Below are positions 1,950 through 20,840 of a stretch of 64,000 nt of DNA, piece by piece (position 1 is the stretch's first letter; each line of letters begins with the position of its first letter). The notes beneath the pieces are model-generated. The model was not told the DNA's origin. It worked only from the letters and a program-made list of their open reading frames with translations, and searched no databases. The position numbers and the translations under genes were made by a program. Source of the DNA: a virus (taxonomy: Duplodnaviria > Heunggongvirae > Uroviricota > Caudoviricetes); the IMG/VR virus record IMGVR_UViG_2851938318_000001, one strand, 5' to 3'.

Positions 1950-3194
1950 TGCTGCTATGCCTTTTACCTTGCTTAAAAGTTCAAGCTGTCGTGAGTAAGG
2001 TTTTGCGCAATAGTAGGCTTTGATAATCTTCCCCGGTGTCGCATCGCCGGGGTCGAGTCCTTCCTCGCCCAAACACGCAACTTTGACATTAAGACCGATA
2101 CTGGTCAGTCGCCTGGCTGCGGCCATAGTGTTGCGTATAGCTTGCTTTTCACTATCCCACATCATGATCACATTACGTAACCCACGCGCCTTGAGCGTCA
2201 GGAACGCGCCTAACTGATCTTCTGCATCCTGAGTGGTGTTACCAGATAGATGCATCCCGAACGTTCCTATTGGTTCCACGTAATCACGTAATGTTTCTTC
2301 GTCAAAAATAGCTCGTTTAACCCCCATAACATCGAACGCCCCCTCACAGACAACTACAGTCTGTTTGCCGACTGCATTATGGCCGTTGTAGAGAAACTTA
2401 CCTGAAGCTGGAAGCTGCATAGGAAAGAGGTAGCGGCGTTCTGCTGTACCGGTAATGTCTCGTCCCTGAAATGTCTTCATTACCCCATCCAGATCGTAAA
2501 CCGGTATCAGTATTCGCATATCGAATATCTGCCCTTTTACCTGATCTGTATACGGATCTACATAAGCGTGCTTGCCTTCGACGCAGTATCGTAGGTCAAA
2601 ATACTTTGCCATTTCAGGTGATATGTTTCGTTCAACCAGATAGTCTGGAAGACGGCCATCTATAGGAAGCTCGTAATGACGAGGGAGTGCAACTGGCCCC
2701 TCTAACTCGACTGTGCTTGCAAGCACTAGCTCTTCTTTCTTTGGTGCCCACCCCTGGGAAAGAAGGGCGTTCTGCACATATTCCTCGAACTGTCGTCGTG
2801 ATTTGCCGCTGTAGTACTTGAGGAAGACCAGCTTATTGAACTGAATCTCTTCGGGATGATCACCAGCGAAGCATTTACCGACGCCACTGGTCAGATTGAA
2901 ATATACCTTCCAGTTGGAGCTGCCGCATACCGGACACTCCTTGATATTCACTTCACGACCGCGAGTACTCACGCCTCCACGTCGATAAACGATACCTTCA
3001 GTATCCAACCATTGTTCAAAATCTAATTCGGTAATTAGCTCTTTCAGCTCGCTCACGATAATTCCACTTTTAACAGGCAATATTGTGACCAACCTAAATG
3101 TTGATATAACATAAAGGCTCATGTGTTTTTCTTTTGTGGTTTGGCAAAAGAAAAGTTGTTTCACCAATGAATCAAGCGTGGAGGTGTTCTCCAC
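1941..3194 (-). CDS. DNA primase (zinc-ribbon + Toprim type)
   Basis: 417-aa ORF; CPVCGSSNWKVYF...GKCFAGDH zinc-binding motif; Toprim-like VVVCEGAFDVMG; directly downstream of the helicase gene. True start may be the internal Met at 3122. Confidence 0.6.
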   Translation of the reverse strand: MENTSTLDSLVKQLFFCQTTKEKHMSLYVISTFRLVTILPVKSGIIVSELKELITELDFEQWLDTEGIVYRRGGVSTRGREVNIKECPVCGSSNWKVYFNLTSGVGKCFAGDHPEEIQFNKLVFLKYYSGKSRRQFEEYVQNALLSQGWAPKKEELVLASTVELEGPVALPRHYELPIDGRLPDYLVERNISPEMAKYFDLRYCVEGKHAYVDPYTDQVKGQIFDMRILIPVYDLDGVMKTFQGRDITGTAERRYLFPMQLPASGKFLYNGHNAVGKQTVVVCEGAFDVMGVKRAIFDEETLRDYVEPIGTFGMHLSGNTTQDAEDQLGAFLTLKARGLRNVIMMWDSEKQAIRNTMAAARRLTSIGLNVKVACLGEEGLDPGDATPGKIIKAYYCAKPYSRQLELLSKVKGIAALV

Positions 3195-3203
3195 GCTTAT
3201 TTT

Positions 3204-4544
3204 TTAGGTAACGTCTAAGATTCGCTCAATGAAGCGCATTTGTTCGAGGTTTTGTTTAACGCGAATGCTGATCCCTCCCTGCTGGTTACGCGAACCAGCA
3301 AAGTAGAGACGAGCCTCTCCTTTCGCTTCTTCTTCTTCGGTTTTGTTGATCGTTATTACCAGATCAGCAATACGTACTTTTTCGATGTTGTCGGCAGCGT
3401 GCATCATTGTGGCAACTTCTGACGCGCCACCTTCACGGTTTGTTTGCGACGCCGTGATACCAGCAACGTTATGCTTGTCATAAAGAGCACGTAAATCGGT
3501 GTAGATACTACGAATGTTGGCGCGATCATCACGAAGGTCATAACTGGCACGCATCAAATCTGCGTAGTCGACAACAACCATGTCAGGCACCATACCATTG
3601 GCTTTCATACTGTTAAGCATACGGTCCAGATCTGCCGGTGACATACTTCCTGACGGACGCTCAACAACCCACAAACTACCAATCCCCTTAGAGGCTCCCA
3701 ACTCTGCCAACTTACGATGAACTTCATCGCGCCGTTCCACCAACTTGGACATTTCCGTCTCCGACAATCTTGCATCAAAACGGTCGGACAAAATGTTGGT
3801 GTGAACCTCCAGCGAGAGATACAGAACATTGTAGCCAGCAAGCGTTGCGTTTATGGAAAACTCACCCATTGCGGTCGATTTACCGGATTTAGCGAACCCC
3901 ATGAAGAGCACCATTTCGCGCTTTGCCCAGCCTTTTTGGTACAGCAACCTATCGAGAAGAGGGAGTCCAGTTGTAATACTGTTTGGTACATACTCCTCTG
4001 AAGCCTCATATTCACGCGCTTTCAATCGCTCACTTGCGGAGGTGTAGTAGTCATAGATTCCGGTCGCTTCGTTCGATCCAATCTGCTGAACCTTGGCCAT
4101 GATTGCCATCGCCCCCTGAAAGTCGCCCTTCTCTTTCAGTTCAGCAGCCTTAATCAGAGCATCATCAAACGCTACGCTTTTTGCGAAGGTTGATACCTGG
4201 TCAACCATGTACGAGGTATCGGACAATTTTTCTGCAAGGATGCGCTTAAACGCAGCAACAACATCGGCGAATAGTTCCTCACGGATAGTCTTATCGCGTT
4301 TCGCACGCTTAAGCATATCCAGAATTGCAGATGAAGAGGGCGCGCTCTTGTACATACGGTAATAGCCCGAAACCATATTAACCAATATGGCATTGGCCGC
4401 ATTGGCAAATTGGCTAGGCACAACCAGATCTCCCGCACGAGTAAGAAACTCGTGATCACGACAAAAATATGCCGTCAGTCTGTTCTGGAAATCTTCATCA
4501 AACTCTTCGGACAGCCCGCGTCCTGTATGGCAAAGTTCGGTCAT
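3204..4544 (-). CDS. DnaB-family replicative DNA helicase
   Basis: 446 aa; Walker A GFAKSGKST, Walker B-like MVVVDYADL; N-terminal helical domain plus RecA-like C-terminal domain. Confidence 0.75.
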   Translation of the reverse strand: MTELCHTGRGLSEEFDEDFQNRLTAYFCRDHEFLTRAGDLVVPSQFANAANAILVNMVSGYYRMYKSAPSSSAILDMLKRAKRDKTIREELFADVVAAFKRILAEKLSDTSYMVDQVSTFAKSVAFDDALIKAAELKEKGDFQGAMAIMAKVQQIGSNEATGIYDYYTSASERLKAREYEASEEYVPNSITTGLPLLDRLLYQKGWAKREMVLFMGFAKSGKSTAMGEFSINATLAGYNVLYLSLEVHTNILSDRFDARLSETEMSKLVERRDEVHRKLAELGASKGIGSLWVVERPSGSMSPADLDRMLNSMKANGMVPDMVVVDYADLMRASYDLRDDRANIRSIYTDLRALYDKHNVAGITASQTNREGGASEVATMMHAADNIEKVRIADLVITINKTEEEEAKGEARLYFAGSRNQQGGISIRVKQNLEQMRFIERILDVT

Positions 4545-5610: not shown

Positions 5611-6378
5611 ATGGACGATTTATCGGTATACGCGAGATCATTGGATAAGGCTAAATACTATGTTTACTGTCTCTATGATACAGAAGACAAGATGAAAAGA
5701 CCGTTTTACATAGGAAAAGGCAAATCGACTCGTTGTCTCGATCACATCAAGTATCCCGATGACTCTCCCAAATCCATGCGGATCAAAGAACTTTTGGCTA
5801 ATAAAAAATTAGGCATAGATATTCTTCGTCATGGTATGGATGAAACCACAGCCAAACTTGTTGAGGCGACATGCATCGACCTTATGGGGGTCGGAGAGCT
5901 TACGAATAAGGTACGAGGAAGTGGTTCCATGATGGGCAGAATATCACTGGACGCCTACCATCACTTAGTGCTGCAAGAGGAAACTGAAATTGCTCCTGAG
6001 CACGCCGGTCTTGCCTTCCTGCTAAACAGCACCTACAAGTCAGGAATGTCCGCTCTGGCATTATATGAAGCTACGCGTGGCGTATGGGCAAAGGTTCCAA
6101 GAGACGAGAATCTCAAATATGCCTACGCTACATATGGTGGGCTAATAATGGAAGTTTATCAGATTGAATGCTGGGTCAAAGCCGGTTCTCAGCAGTACTT
6201 TACAAGGGATATAGCTCTTGGCCCCGACACAAAACGTTATGAATTTGTTGGCAGAATAGCCGATGAGCATATTAGAAAACTGTATGTAGGCAAATTAATC
6301 AAGAAGCCACCAAGCTACGGTAGCCCTTTTGTGAAGGTTGGGGTGGTTAGGACTGAACATAGTGTTAGCGCGGCATAA
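5611..6378 (+). CDS. GIY-YIG domain nuclease, possible free-standing homing endonuclease
   Basis: 255 aa; N-terminus YVYCLYD...FYIGKGKSTRCLDH fits the GIY-(10-13)-YIG...R...H pattern; lone plus-strand gene between replication and partition modules. Confidence 0.55.
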   Translation: MDDLSVYARSLDKAKYYVYCLYDTEDKMKRPFYIGKGKSTRCLDHIKYPDDSPKSMRIKELLANKKLGIDILRHGMDETTAKLVEATCIDLMGVGELTNKVRGSGSMMGRISLDAYHHLVLQEETEIAPEHAGLAFLLNSTYKSGMSALALYEATRGVWAKVPRDENLKYAYATYGGLIMEVYQIECWVKAGSQQYFTRDIALGPDTKRYEFVGRIADEHIRKLYVGKLIKKPPSYGSPFVKVGVVRTEHSVSAA

Positions 6379-6430: not shown

Positions 6431-6790
6431 TTAACCTTTCTTCATCAACTCTCGTTTGATTTCATCGGTACGCATCGTGACATCGGCAGCGGTGATCGCC
6501 TCATTCAATTTCACGATGTCCTCGATTTCCTGCGGTGACTTCTCTGCCAGATGGAAAATGGCTGCTCGAATCACGTCAGAACGAGTGAACTTCTCGAAGC
6601 GAGGGATGAACTTCATCATCTCCAGCAGTTCGAAGTATTCGTCCTCCAGTGACATTGTGCGGCTTTTAATTTTCTCTTTGCCACGAGTCGGGCGTCCCTG
6701 TGGTCTGACTGGTTGGCGCAAAGGAGTTGTGTTCTTAGCCGGTGCATCAGGCTCTTTGCGCTTTGCTAGGTCACCCATTTTCATGGACAT
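6431..6790 (-). CDS. small centromere-binding partner of ParA (ribbon-helix-helix, ParG-like)
   Basis: 119 aa; basic N-terminal tail then a beta-strand/helix pattern (TMSLEDEYFELLEMM...RSDVIRAAIFHL); start overlaps the parA stop. Confidence 0.5.
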   Translation of the reverse strand: MSMKMGDLAKRKEPDAPAKNTTPLRQPVRPQGRPTRGKEKIKSRTMSLEDEYFELLEMMKFIPRFEKFTRSDVIRAAIFHLAEKSPQEIEDIVKLNEAITAADVTMRTDEIKRELMKKG

Positions 6791-7458
6791 TATTCTTCTT
6801 CCTCCAGACTCAACAGATAATCTACAAATTCTTCAAACTCGGCTTCCGCCTTTTTGTCGCGCTCGCTACCGGTCATTTCAAAGATAGAACGACCAGACTC
6901 TTCCGCATCATCATAGACGTTGCGGTTATATAGATTGACTGGCGCAGACTCGATTCCAAACGTCTCAACAATCTCTTTAGCCGCCAGAATGCGAGACACT
7001 TGTGATGGCAAAGCCGGGCACTGGTTCATGACCGCGCGGACCTTCACTTTATCGTTTACATTGCGAACATTGTCGATAATAGGATCGATGTCACGTAAAG
7101 ATTTCAAATCACGACGCTTAGGACGCAGCGGGATAATGATAACGTCAGCCATCAGCATCGCTTGTCGCTGAATTTCGGAGTCGAAGCCACCAGCATCTAC
7201 CACTACAAACTCAGCTCTACCCTGAAGCGATTTTAGGTGCTTAATGATGTCATCCTGAACGTATGCAAAAGGAATCAGCTCAAGGTCTTCGTTCTGTCGA
7301 CGGTCTTCACACCAGCTCGTTGTCGTGCGCTGAATATCTATATCGGTAATATAAACCTTCTTCTTCTTTTTGACTTTCAGGCAAACGGCAATTTGCTGGG
7401 CAACGGTGGATTTGCCAGGCCCGCCCTTTGTGCCGCCAACCACAAAGATCTTGGTCAT
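6790..7458 (-). CDS. parA: ParA-family partition ATPase (small, type Ib)
   Basis: 222 aa; deviant Walker A GGTKGGPGKST; second motif VVVDAGG. Confidence 0.8.
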   Translation of the reverse strand: MTKIFVVGGTKGGPGKSTVAQQIAVCLKVKKKKKVYITDIDIQRTTTSWCEDRRQNEDLELIPFAYVQDDIIKHLKSLQGRAEFVVVDAGGFDSEIQRQAMLMADVIIIPLRPKRRDLKSLRDIDPIIDNVRNVNDKVKVRAVMNQCPALPSQVSRILAAKEIVETFGIESAPVNLYNRNVYDDAEESGRSIFEMTGSERDKKAEAEFEEFVDYLLSLEEEE

Positions 7459-7633
7459 TGGAGAGTTCCCTTTGCGTATATAATTATCGTCTGAAACAAC
7501 TTGTTTTCTTATATGTGATATAGCCTAAATGCCTACGGCTGCGGTGTAAAGGTTAAATGGTAGGTTGTGATTAACAATTTGAACCGCCCCGGAAATCCTG
7601 GAGACTAAACTCCCTGAGAAAGAGGTAAACAGG

Positions 7634-7960
7634 ATGACTAAAAATACTCGTTTTTCCCCCGAAGTCCGTCAGCGGGCGATTCGTATGGTTCTGGAAAGTC
7701 AGGATGAATATGACTCACAGTGGGCGGCAATTTGTTCCATTGCCCCAAAGATTGGCTGTACGCCGGAGACTCTGCGTGTCTGGGTTCGCCAGCATGAGCG
7801 GGATACCGGGGGCGGTGATGGTGGGCTCACCAGCGCTGAACGTCAGCGTCTGAAAGAGCTGGAACGTGAAAATCGTGAACTGCGCCGCAGTAACGATATC
7901 CTTCGCCAGGCTTCCGCTTATTTTGCGAAGGCGGAGTTCGACCGCCTCTGGAAAAAATGA
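7634..7960 (+). CDS. IS3-family transposase OrfA (HTH)
   Basis: 108 aa; A-run at the orfA/orfB overlap consistent with -1 frameshifting. Confidence 0.85.
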
Positions 7961-8847
7961 TGCCACTGCTGGATAAGCTGCGTGAGCAGTACGGGGTCGG
8001 ACCGGTATGCAGCGAACTGCATATTGCCCCGTCAACGTATTACCATTGTCAGCAACAGCGACATCATCCGGATAAACGCAGTGCCCGTGCGCAGCACGAC
8101 GACTGGCTGAAGAGAGAGATACAGCGCGTATACGATGAAAATCATCAGGTGTACGGTGTGCGTAAAGTCTGGCGTCAGTTGTTACGGGAAGGAATCAGGG
8201 TGGCCAGATGTACAGTGGCACGTCTCATGGCGGTTATGGGACTTGCCGGTGTTCTCCGGGGTAAAAAGGTCCGTACGACCATCAGCCGGAAAGCCGTTGC
8301 CGCAGGCGACCGCGTAAACCGTCAGTTCGTGGCAGAACGACCTGACCAGCTGTGGGTGGCTGATTTTACTTACGTCAGCACATGGCAGGGCTTCGTCTAT
8401 GTGGCGTTTATCATTGATGTGTTTGCCGGATACATCGTGGGGTGGCGGGTCTCATCGTCTATGGAAACGACATTCGTGCTGGATGCGCTGGAGCAGGCGT
8501 TGTGGGCCCGTCGTCCGTCTGGCACCATCCATCACAGCGATAAAGGCTCTCAGTATGTGTCACTGGCCTATACGGAGCGACTAAAAGAAGCCGGATTACT
8601 GGCATCAACAGGGAGTACAGGCGACTCGTATGACAACGCGATGGCTGAGAGCATCAATGGTCTTTACAAAGCGGAGGTAATACACCGTAAGAGCTGGAAA
8701 AACCGTGCAGAAGTGGAACTGGCCACACTAACGTGGGTGGACTGGTATAACAATCGACGATTGCTGGGAAGGCTGGGCCATACTCCTCCGGCAGAAGCAG
8801 AAAAAGCTTATTATGCTTCCATCGGAAACGATGATCTGGCAGCCTGA
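7957..8847 (+). CDS. IS3-family transposase OrfB (DDE catalytic domain)
   Basis: 296-aa ORF in the -1 frame relative to OrfA. Confidence 0.85.
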
Positions 8848-9089
8848 GTTCACAGATAAAACACTCTCCAGGAAACCCGGGGCGGTTCAATTGGCAATCA
8901 TAGCTTGTATTTGTCTGTTGAAAAAAGTAACAATGACCTCTATATTACAAGTACGGTGATATGCCGTACACAATTTGATAATGCACACGTAATGGGCTAT
9001 AGCCTTTTAAAGTAATTTTTGAGTCGAAAACTCAGTTTGAACAGAGGAGATTGATGGCCTTCCTACATCACGGCCATCAGGAGGAATAC

Positions 9090-9359
9090 ATGTCAGCACT
9101 AAAAAAGCAGCGCATCGATTTGAGATTAACCGATGACGATAAAAGCATCATCGAGGAAGCTGCCGCAATGTCTAACCAGAGCATTACTCAGTTTATGGTT
9201 AGCAGTGCATCTGAACGTGCCGTGAAAGTTATAGAGCAACACCGTAGACTAGTTCTGAATGAAGAATCCTGGAATCTGGTTATGGACGCTATAAGCAATC
9301 CTCCGGCACCGAACGACAAGCTGAAACGAGCTGCTGATCGTCTGAAAAGCATGGAGTAG
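9090..9359 (+). CDS. DUF1778-type antitoxin (TacA-like)
   Basis: Start chosen at ATG 9090 preceded by AGGAGG; about 89 aa; immediately upstream of the GNAT toxin gene. Confidence 0.65.
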   Translation: MSALKKQRIDLRLTDDDKSIIEEAAAMSNQSITQFMVSSASERAVKVIEQHRRLVLNEESWNLVMDAISNPPAPNDKLKRAADRLKSME

Positions 9360-9366
9360 TTTACTC

Positions 9367-9888
9367 GTGAGCAATACAACGATAGAGATTTTCTCTGGAG
9401 AGAAAGATTATGATCTAAACGGTTTTGATTGCGGCGAAGAGTCACTAAACGCCTTTTTAGCCAACCACTTAAAAAGGCAGCATGAGGGAAAAATTCTTCG
9501 TGCTTATGTGCTTTGCACTCAAGAAGAAAGGCCAAAAGTGTTAGGATATTACACTTTGTCAGGTAGTTGTTTTGAAAAGGAGTCCTTACCTTCAAGAAGC
9601 AAACAAAAGAAGGTTCCTTATCGGAATGTTCCAAGTGTTACTTTGGGTAGGCTGGCTTTGGACAAGCCCCTTCAAGGTCAAGGATTTGGCTCAATGCTTG
9701 TAACACATGCAATGCGCGTTGTGTACAATGCATCTCTTGCTGTAGGCATTCATGGACTTTTCGTTGAGGCGTTAAATGACAAAGCCAAGGCGTTTTATAA
9801 AAGTTTAGGCTTTATCCAGCTGGTTGGTAACAACGAGCGTTCTTTGTTCTATCCTACAAAATCTATCGAAAAATTGTTCGAAGAATAA
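9367..9888 (+). CDS. GNAT-family acetyltransferase toxin (TacT-like)
   Basis: 173 aa; acyl-CoA-binding motif QGQGFGSMLV; GTG start 8 nt after antitoxin stop. Confidence 0.65.
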   Translation: MSNTTIEIFSGEKDYDLNGFDCGEESLNAFLANHLKRQHEGKILRAYVLCTQEERPKVLGYYTLSGSCFEKESLPSRSKQKKVPYRNVPSVTLGRLALDKPLQGQGFGSMLVTHAMRVVYNASLAVGIHGLFVEALNDKAKAFYKSLGFIQLVGNNERSLFYPTKSIEKLFEE

Positions 9889-10056
9889 TGTGTTCCCCTC
9901 ATTTGAGGGGAACTTCGACATCACCAACCACAAACCCTCTCTCCCATCGTATTGTGAAAAAGGATTTGGCGTTCGGTTTCTTCAGTCATTACATCATTAT
10001 TGCTGATATAGATAGGCTCAGCCCCATCGCAGAACAACACGCTGGCTGTTTGTGGT

Positions 10057-10308
10057 TTAATGACGCACCCACTTATCATACAACTCACGATGAACGGCAG
10101 AAGCATCTTTCTGACGTATTTTACTGCTCGTCTCATTCACCACTTTCACTGTGTTTTGAAGTCGTTTTCTGTCTTCCTGTTTTGCCTTCTCTTCCATTGC
10201 TCGTCGCGCCGCATTCCCGCCCATCGTGTAAGCGCCGACAAGAACGAAAAGAACGGCAGCCAGCGTAATCAAAGCAACTTTTAGCTTTGTCATCAGGCTG
10301 CCTAGCAT
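10057..10308 (-). CDS. spanin-like protein (N-terminal transmembrane helix + charged coiled region)
   Basis: 83 aa; TM segment LKVALITLAAVLFVLVGAY followed by KAKQEDRKRLQ-rich region; last gene of the lysis-like cassette. Confidence 0.4.
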   Translation of the reverse strand: MLGSLMTKLKVALITLAAVLFVLVGAYTMGGNAARRAMEEKAKQEDRKRLQNTVKVVNETSSKIRQKDASAVHRELYDKWVRH

Positions 10309-19530: not shown

Positions 19531-19572
19531 TGAACCGCCCCGGGTTTCCTGGAGAGTGTTTTATCTGTGAAC

Positions 19573-20463
19573 TCAGGCTGCCAGATCATCGTTTCCGATG
19601 GAAGCATAATAAGCTTTTTCTGCTTCTGCCGGAGGAGTATGGCCCAGCCTTCCCAGCAATCGTCGATTGTTATACCAGTCCACCCACGTTAGTGTGGCCA
19701 GTTCCACTTCTGCACGGTTTTTCCAGCTCTTACGGTGTATTACCTCCGCTTTGTAAAGACCATTGATGCTCTCAGCCATCGCGTTGTCATACGAGTCGCC
19801 TGTACTCCCTGTTGATGCCAGTAATCCGGCTTCTTTTAGTCGCTCCGTATAGGCCAGTGACACATACTGAGAGCCTTTATCGCTGTGATGGATGGTGCCA
19901 GACGGACGACGGGCCCACAACGCCTGCTCCAGCGCATCCAGCACGAATGTCGTTTCCATAGACGATGAGACCCGCCACCCCACGATGTATCCGGCAAACA
20001 CATCAATGATAAACGCCACATAGACGAAGCCCTGCCATGTGCTGACGTAAGTAAAATCAGCCACCCACAGCTGGTCAGGTCGTTCTGCCACGAACTGACG
20101 GTTTACGCGGTCGCCTGCGGCAACGGCTTTCCGGCTGATGGTCGTACGGACCTTTTTACCCCGGAGAACACCGGCAAGTCCCATAACCGCCATGAGACGT
20201 GCCACTGTACATCTGGCCACCCTGATTCCTTCCCGTAACAACTGACGCCAGACTTTACGCACACCGTACACCTGATGATTTTCATCGTATACGCGCTGTA
20301 TCTCTCTCTTCAGCCAGTCGTCGTGCTGCGCACGGGCACTGCGTTTATCCGGATGATGTCGCTGTTGCTGACAATGGTAATACGTTGACGGGGCAATATG
20401 CAGTTCGCTGCATACCGGTCCGACCCCGTACTGCTCACGCAGCTTATCCAGCAGTGGCATCAT
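19573..20463 (-). CDS. IS3-family transposase OrfB
   Basis: 296-aa ORF identical to the copy-1 OrfB. Confidence 0.85.
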
Positions 20464-20786
20464 TTTTTCCAGAGGCGGTCGAACTCCGCCTTCGCAAAAT
20501 AAGCGGAAGCCTGGCGAAGGATATCGTTACTGCGGCGCAGTTCACGATTTTCACGTTCCAGCTCTTTCAGACGCTGACGTTCAGCGCTGGTGAGCCCACC
20601 ATCACCGCCCCCGGTATCCCGCTCATGCTGGCGAACCCAGACACGCAGAGTCTCCGGCGTACAGCCAATCTTTGGGGCAATGGAACAAATTGCCGCCCAC
20701 TGTGAGTCATATTCATCCTGACTTTCCAGAACCATACGAATCGCCCGCTGACGGACTTCGGGGGAAAAACGAGTATTTTTAGTCAT
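20460..20786 (-). CDS. IS3-family transposase OrfA
   Basis: 108-aa ORF identical to the copy-1 OrfA. Confidence 0.85.
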
Positions 20787-20840
20787 CCTGTTTACCTCTT
20801 TCTCAGGGAGTTTAGTCTCCAGGATTTCCGGGGCGGTTCA

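Follow-up and report, generated by a model that had tools for sequence, protein, structure and literature searches.

An AtaRT/KacAT-type toxin-antitoxin operon as probable exchangeable cargo beside the partition genes of an SSU5-like phage-plasmid of Escherichia coli

The closest described relatives of the toxin-antitoxin (TA) pair considered here are two chromosomal systems, AtaR-AtaT of Escherichia coli O157:H7, located between livJ and panM (structures 6GTS, 6AJM and 7CHD), and KacAT of Klebsiella pneumoniae (5XUN and 5ZGN). [quoted passage not shown] The family has already been described in considerable structural detail, with crystal structures of the toxin, the toxin-antitoxin complex, the operator complex and the tRNA complex. 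In the case of AtaT, the G108D substitution blocks binding of acetyl-CoA, mutation (singly or in groups) of a set of residues running from L27 to L136 lowers toxicity, and K165 contacts tRNA in the structure (PMC7595197). For KacA, residues R8, D10 and R12 read the operator, and mutating them abolishes or weakens binding (PMC6698736). Conditional cooperativity has been shown for KacAT only.

The TacAT systems of Salmonella likewise join a GNAT toxin that acetylates aminoacyl-tRNA to an antitoxin of the DUF1778 family, but TacT1-3 are only 24-28% identical to the toxin described below. In the phylogeny of these enzymes, TacT1-3, AtaT2 and GmvT fall in the Gly-specific clade D, whereas the AtaT/KacT branch belongs to clade A (Bikmetov et al. 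2022, PMC9177977).

A phage-borne member of the AtaT/KacT branch has been named in the literature. Phage Cyrano (pLF82) is an SSU5-like phage-plasmid that makes virions and is maintained at about 5.5 copies in each cell (PMC9928086). Its gene CYRAN_26 carries the annotation 'KacT acetyltransferase-type toxin' and CYRAN_27 that of 'putative antitoxin'; both are listed as morons whose transcription in the lysogen exceeds the background of the surrounding prophage genes, the tabulated values being 35 and 60 (PMC9928086). A literature search for experimental work on the pair of pLF82/Cyrano, or on GNAT TA systems of SSU5-type phage-plasmids, returned annotation and transcript data only. The locus examined here has thus already been named for Cyrano, and the family to which it belongs is thoroughly characterised. 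It is read here as a type II GNAT/DUF1778 TA operon of the AtaRT/KacAT branch, carried as exchangeable cargo next to the partition genes on an E. coli phage-plasmid that resembles SSU5, a reading to which a probability of roughly 85% is assigned.

The operon and its control region

The window, meaning the whole stretch of 64,000 nucleotides that was analysed, matches plasmid pRM9131-1 of the bovine E. coli strain RM9131, a close relative of pLF82/Cyrano, with 100% identity over the 15 kb compared. The features in and around the pair are as follows.

7566-9928, no strand assigned: variable cargo slot between the parA and spanin genes, holding IS629 and the TA cassette
7580-8889, plus strand: IS629/IS1203 (IS3 family), 1310 bp, delimited by alignment with Cyrano, its transposase reading towards the operon
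8918-8946, plus strand: sigma-70-like promoter TTGAAA-N17-TATATT, matching the consensus at 10 of 12 positions, predicted promoter of the operon
8951-8969, no strand assigned: predicted operator GTACGG-N7-CCGTAC, an inverted repeat starting 4 nt past the -10 hexamer
9079-9084, plus strand: Shine-Dalgarno sequence AGGAGG, 5 nt 5' of the antitoxin ATG, as read from the sequence
9090-9359, plus strand: antitoxin gene, start codon ATG at 9090 and stop codon at 9357-9359, 89 aa, DUF1778/TacA family
9367-9888, plus strand: toxin gene, GTG start codon, 173 aa, GNAT of the AtaT/KacT branch
9667, plus strand: single-nucleotide difference in the toxin gene, C in place of the T of Cyrano, changing residue 101 from Ser to Pro
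9892-9913, no strand assigned: hairpin GTTCCCCTCA/TGAGGGGAAC with perfect 10-bp arms, between the toxin stop at 9888 and the spanin stop at 9921

The two genes lie on the same strand with the antitoxin first, and are separated by 7 nt (9360-9366), and the GGAG at 9353-9356 could plausibly serve as the ribosome-binding site of the toxin gene. An earlier, sequence-only reading of this DNA had placed both ORFs, the AGGAGG and the acetyl-CoA loop motif QGQGFGSMLV where they are found on re-reading the sequence, and had given the correct length of 173 aa for the toxin; its gap of 8 nt has to be shortened to 7 nt, and the toxin start codon is GTG and not ATG. Gene order and protein sizes are those of AtaRT (88-89 aa and 173-175 aa), where the corresponding gap is 6 nt. 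The antitoxin can also be read from a TTG codon at 9051 to give a protein of 102 aa, the start adopted in the record of Cyrano. RefSeq starts the gene at the ATG at 9090, and this is also where similarity to AtaR and KacA sets in.

Upstream of the pair, a scan found one strong sigma-70-like site, the predicted promoter at 8918-8946, followed closely by the predicted operator. KacA4KacT2 was crystallised on the DNA AAATGTACGGTTATTAACCGTACATGA (PMC6698736), and chromosomal ataR is preceded by TGTACGGTGACATACCGTACA; the half-sites and the 7-nt spacer are common to both of these sequences and to the inverted repeat at 8951-8969. The same layout is evident in a diverged allele from an Enterobacter phage-plasmid, in which TTGAAA-N17-TATAGT is followed by TGTACGG-N7-CTGTACA. 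Such an arrangement strongly suggests that expression of the operon would be autoregulated by the antitoxin-toxin complex.

The leader that separates the operator from the antitoxin ATG is about 120 nt long, in contrast to about 25 nt in ataRT. Folding of a 148-nt leader RNA yielded a z-score of -0.28, and hence no significant structure. An 8-bp inverted repeat is present within the leader at 9052-9079. At the other end of the operon, the hairpin at 9892-9913 has a terminator-like score on the minus strand, while its plus-strand side is without a T-run; the TA transcript may end at this hairpin.

Variable gene content between parA and the lysis genes

The pair is oriented against the genes on either side of it. 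It diverges from parA (6790-7458, minus strand) and converges with the spanin, endolysin and holin genes, which are also found on the minus strand from position 9921 on. Homology to the related elements SSU5, pECOH89, pHD8642-1 and pHCM2 ends at 7559-7565 and resumes at 9929-9939, and what lies between these points differs from one element to the next. In SSU5 and pECOH89, it consists of two unrelated genes that lie on the backbone strand and have no known function, whereas in pHCM2 of S. Typhi it is a single 183-aa gene. In the case of the Enterobacter element pHD8642-1, the slot is occupied by a diverged DUF1778/GNAT pair, the antitoxin being 87% and the toxin 63% identical to the proteins described here. 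Searches of the alternative slot genes of SSU5, pECOH89 and pHCM2 against Pfam gave no matches, and PHROGs lists them as of unknown function.

That genes are present, absent or replaced at one fixed position, while the flanks are kept, supports the interpretation of the pair as accessory cargo, or a 'moron', of SSU5-like phage-plasmids. The sequence-only reading had proposed acquired cargo from the orientation of the pair opposite to the phage backbone, and had set it between an IS element and a lysis cassette. The neighbours are indeed an IS element upstream (7580-8889) and lysis genes from 9921, and the proposal of cargo is borne out by relatives that keep the flanks and carry other genes in the slot. 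Base composition alone gives no support for a recent acquisition, since the GC content of the operon (42.1%, against 46.6% for the window) falls at the 13th percentile and is no outlier.

Over 1071 bp, the locus is 99.9% identical at the nucleotide level to that of Cyrano, where it occupies the same place between parA and Rz1 (Misson et al. 2023). Unlike the plasmid examined here, Cyrano has no IS629 upstream of the pair and encodes Ser at toxin residue 101, in addition to its antitoxin being annotated from the TTG codon. At 90% identity or more, the locus is present in 144 PLSDB plasmids, 130 of which are non-mobilizable, and in 151 of 5426 complete E. coli genomes, on a plasmid in all 151. 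By rough figures, 139 of the 240 Escherichia plasmids that match a segment of the backbone carry the pair. The proteins are labelled in RefSeq as a GNAT family N-acetyltransferase and as a DUF1778 or TacA-family antitoxin.

In this plasmid-borne distribution the pair differs from AtaRT, and no chromosomal copy of the allele was found in the 5426 E. coli genomes. The chromosomal ataRT genes, at about 66% nucleotide identity to the pair, occur at 1626 chromosomal places in the same genomes (~30%); the search for ataRT-related sequences in complete E. coli gave 1924 matching records in 1853 genomes, or 71 more records than genomes. It is conceivable that chromosomal AtaR could cross-neutralise the phage-plasmid toxin.

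Toxin and antitoxin compared with AtaRT and KacAT

When compared with the sequences in the PDB, the toxin aligns from end to end and without indels with AtaT (6gts, E 6.9e-79) and KacT (5zgn_C, E 1.9e-74), with identities of 69% to chromosomal AtaT and 68% to KacT. Searches against Pfam gave matches to GNAT families, and searches of the pair against NCBIfam gave no specific model above cut-off, with only generic sub-threshold hits (RimI and other GNAT enzymes). An AlphaFold2 model of the toxin built with 47 homologues has a mean pLDDT of 91.7 and superposes on KacT and AtaT with TM scores of 0.94-0.95 (Foldseek, PDB), KacT being the best structural match (TM 0.94). Toxins that acetylate tRNA (KacT, AtaT, TacT1-3, GmvT, AtaT2 and 7BYY) account for all of the top 38 Foldseek matches in the PDB, after which there is a gap down to generic GNATs such as RimI, with a TM score of 0.50. 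The toxin belongs to the AtaT/KacT branch (clade A) and not to the TacT branch.

As there are no indels between the two toxins, AtaT numbering was used directly. The acetyl-CoA loop QGQGFGSMLV corresponds to residues 103-112 (QGQGFG, 103-108, fitting the Q/R-x-x-G-x-G/A pattern of GNATs), and both G108 in this loop and the catalytic Y144 of AtaT are kept. Excluding these two, 13 of the 18 AtaT residues that have been mutated or seen as contacts (PMC7595197) are identical in the toxin, namely L27, F30, H34, R37, S76, S78, K79, K81, K82, Y85, R95, L136 and K165. This comparison covers the basic residues of helices alpha1 and alpha3 that bind the acceptor stem of tRNA, as well as the aminoacyl pocket. 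The remaining five differ (A26S, R40E, N41G, R71K and K77R), R71K and K77R being conservative, and the acetyl-CoA loop itself differs by W107F. [quoted passage not shown] Because of the differences from AtaT just named, the tRNA preference may not be the same. The toxin in this window also carries a private change, S101P.

The antitoxin matches the Pfam family TacA1/DUF1778 (PF08681) with an E value of 5.7e-26 over 79 of 80 profile positions, and aligns from end to end with KacA (E 6.6e-42, 80% identity) and AtaR (E 1.3e-40, 76% identity) among PDB sequences. For both proteins, similarity of this degree lies far outside what chance would give. The antitoxin has a ribbon-helix-helix at its N terminus, while its C-terminal part is the one that binds the toxin. 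The KacA residues in contact with DNA, R8, D10 and R12, are identical in the antitoxin, and M65 and I68 are also conserved. Differences from KacA include R77, essential for neutralisation by KacA, which is Lys here as in AtaR, and Q70, which is Asn here. The earlier assignment of the two ORFs as a GNAT toxin and a DUF1778 antitoxin is upheld by sequence, by the structure model and by the operator, and an alignment with characterised GNAT toxins, as that reading had proposed, finds the catalytic residues conserved (G108 and Y144, together with the 13 further residues listed above).

The role of the module and the Pro101 allele

The mechanism by which the pair would act can be set out by analogy with AtaRT and KacAT, from which each of the following steps is taken. 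With acetyl-CoA as the donor, a dimer of the toxin would acetylate charged tRNAs at their alpha-amino group and thereby block translation. The C-terminal part of the antitoxin would wrap the toxin, blocking both the binding of acetyl-CoA and dimerisation, and a T-A2-A2-T heterohexamer would bind the GTACGG-N7-CCGTAC operator to repress the operon. As in these relatives, the toxin would inhibit growth and the antitoxin would neutralise it. The pair may in addition stabilise the low-copy plasmid prophage by post-segregational killing, as with phd-doc, the classical addiction module of phage-plasmid P1, which is of an unrelated protein family and analogous in role only.

An addiction role is judged to be the most likely one because the element is a low-copy plasmid prophage. 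Judging from its context, the pair can reasonably be regarded as a plasmid addiction module, as the sequence-only reading had proposed, in that it adjoins parA, that every one of its 151 E. coli occurrences is plasmid-borne, and that the replicon is of low copy number.

Two features of this particular plasmid bear on whether the module may still function in this way. The first is the IS629 element (labelled 'IS3-like element IS1203 family transposase' in RefSeq), which is flanked by a 3-bp target duplication, ATT, at 7577-7579 and 8890-8892. Lying upstream of the TA promoter, with 28 nt left before the -35 hexamer, the insertion could change expression of the operon. Among 72,556 PLSDB plasmids, the IS629 junction is found in one, pRM9131-1. 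A second copy of IS629 in the same plasmid interrupts tail gene J.

The second feature is the Pro101 allele of the toxin. The C at 9667 is the sole difference from Cyrano in 1071 bp, and places a proline two residues before Q103, at the start of the acetyl-CoA loop. Pro101 is found on five contigs, compared to at least 1000 for Ser101, and all of the Pro101 contigs examined carry the IS629 junction, one of them being a short-read contig that opens on the final 28 nt of the element. Among 120 representatives of homologue clusters, residue 101 is Ser in 57, Arg in 25, Asp in 15, Thr in eight, Asn in five, and Glu, His and Ala in three each; none of the 120 has Pro at this position. The S101P change could weaken the toxin.

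It is possible, although unlikely, that the module is decaying in this plasmid, with S101P weakening or abolishing the activity of the toxin, perhaps having been selected after IS629 disturbed expression, and with addiction lost as a result. Consistent with such decay are the rarity of Pro101, its absence from the homologues, its standing as the only change from Cyrano, and its association with an insertion at one and the same junction that other PLSDB plasmids lack. Natural alleles that resemble nulls also exist in the family (among the 120 representatives, G108D in one and loss of Y144 in three), and the interruption of tail gene J indicates that damage is accumulating in the same plasmid. 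However, position 101 is variable, and in the AlphaFold2 model is found not in a strand but in the turn between strand 87-98 and helix 107-123 (beta4-alpha3). With an HMM of the 120 homologues, the Ser101 protein scores 331.2 bits and the Pro101 protein 329.0 bits, a penalty of about 2 bits that is too small for S101P to be called inactivating. In addition, neither ORF is broken, the promoter and operator sequences are likewise whole, and IS629 and the nucleotide change share one clonal lineage, such that their co-occurrence may represent hitch-hiking.

Several prophage-borne TA systems have been proposed to act in anti-phage defence. For the pair considered here, a main role in abortive infection, or in the exclusion of competing elements, would fit a variable slot of a temperate phage-plasmid, which is a typical site for defence and accessory genes, and would also fit the transcription of the Cyrano pair in the lysogen. 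Toxins that target tRNA are known immune effectors (PMC12409363 and PMC11559606). Such a role in place of addiction is nonetheless improbable. No PADLOC model matched either protein (E values up to 0.01) or any of the genes that replace the pair in the slot of relatives, and a literature search found no defence phenotype for systems of the AtaRT/KacAT type. The adjacency of parA and the plasmid-only occurrence (151 of 151 in E. coli) fit maintenance, although defence and addiction are roles that can coexist.

More speculatively, the slot between parA and the lysis genes may be a dedicated exchange site for GNAT/DUF1778 pairs, where toxins diversify faster than antitoxins, perhaps to escape chromosomal AtaR. 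By the same scheme, IS629 and S101P would represent linked disarming steps in the present plasmid, which, with tail gene J lost, would be turning from a phage-plasmid into a plain plasmid; this reading as a whole is considered improbable.

The suggestion that the toxin is an ordinary GNAT, either RimI-like or modifying a small molecule, that happens to lie beside a small DNA-binding protein, finds some basis in the weak sub-threshold NCBIfam matches to RimI and other GNATs and in the generic RefSeq name, but is effectively refuted by the full-length 69% identity to AtaT with tRNA-binding residues kept, by structural neighbours that are exclusively toxins (RimI having a TM score of 0.50), and by the DUF1778 partner 7 nt upstream together with a KacAT/AtaRT operator.

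Taken as a type II TA operon of the AtaRT/KacAT branch, the pair is an ordinary one, and nothing found here alters what is known of that family. For annotation, the value of the comparison is that the pair can be labelled as a tRNA-acetylating TA system of the AtaRT/KacAT type, as opposed to a generic GNAT and DUF1778 protein. The slot between parA and the lysis genes, as a site of cassette exchange, is a minor point for follow-up, and the plasmid, with its rare allele of the toxin and two insertions of IS629 of which one breaks a tail gene, provides a small case study of phage-plasmid decay. More broadly, the pair helps to explain how low-copy phage-plasmids of this family, which occur in about 3% of the complete genomes of E. 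coli, may persist.

Genes beside the partition and lysis functions

The site upstream of the partition genes is occupied in the window by a gene with a nuclease domain, and a small gene adjoins parA itself:
5611-6378, plus strand: LEM-3-like GIY-YIG nuclease-domain gene (Pfam E-value 5.5e-07)
6431-6790, minus strand: 119-aa gene, overlapping the parA stop by 1 nt

Related phage-plasmids have other genes at the GIY-YIG site: pECOH89, pHD8642-1 and pHCM2 each have a DUF2971 gene, and the SSU5-like Cyrano has yet another gene, a hypothetical one. The site is a second variable slot. In the case of the 119-aa gene, the Cyrano record names its counterpart a 'RelE/ParE putative toxin'. The window gene has no Pfam match, and its PHROG match is only to a family of unknown function; its position suggests that it encodes the small protein that binds the centromere and partners ParA, and not a toxin.

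In the lysis cassette, a frame for the outer-membrane spanin Rz1 overlaps the 3' end of Rz (10057-10308):
9921-10106, minus strand: Rz1, 61-aa product (MLLPFIVSCMISGC...) with a lipoprotein-type Cys

The Rz1 of the Cyrano record starts further in and is only 39 aa long, and the RefSeq annotation of pRM9131-1, from E. coli RM9131, includes no Rz1 gene.

Paired insertion sequences and the tail gene J

A second IS629 lies inside the homologue of J, the tail host-specificity gene of Cyrano (4728 nt), which it splits ~860 nt from the J start:
19531-20840, minus orientation: second IS629 copy, with a TAC duplication

With J split in this way, the phage-plasmid is probably incapable of forming infective virions. 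This copy and the one at 7580-8889 are mutually inverted, with 0 differences over 1310 bp. The two copies bound ~10.6 kb in which the toxin-antitoxin pair, the lysis cassette, the tail-fibre gene and most of J are located, and this bracketed segment could be a candidate for inversion or for movement as a composite unit.

Variation and distribution of the toxin-antitoxin branch

Among 120 cluster representatives of the toxin branch, one carries G108D, the classical substitution that inactivates AtaT, and in three others Y144 is replaced (by H, G or S). These replacements indicate that alleles predicted to be toxin-null segregate in nature within the AtaT/KacT branch. The leader between operator and antitoxin gene also differs: the diverged allele of pHD8642-1 (L005, Enterobacter) has a tandem array of CTGAAAA-type heptamers at about 1545-1640 of L005, whereas in the window leader the sole related motif is TCGAAAACT, near 9026-9034.

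Pairs of the same branch occur elsewhere in E. coli, for instance at the following loci:
E. coli O157:H7 chromosome (L007), between livJ and panM: chromosomal ataRT
E. coli plasmid p10044802_1 (L008), 2512-3315: plasmid-borne DUF1778/GNAT pair

Chromosomal ataRT, which roughly 30% of complete E. coli genomes carry, has operator half-sites in common with the phage-plasmid pair; cross-talk between the two, whether regulatory or neutralising, is conceivable. The p10044802_1 pair is 69% (toxin) and 79% (antitoxin) identical to that of the window, and adjoins a RepB replication gene and a decayed vapBC pair. As p10044802_1 is a non-phage plasmid, the branch to which the window pair belongs thus circulates on several plasmid types.
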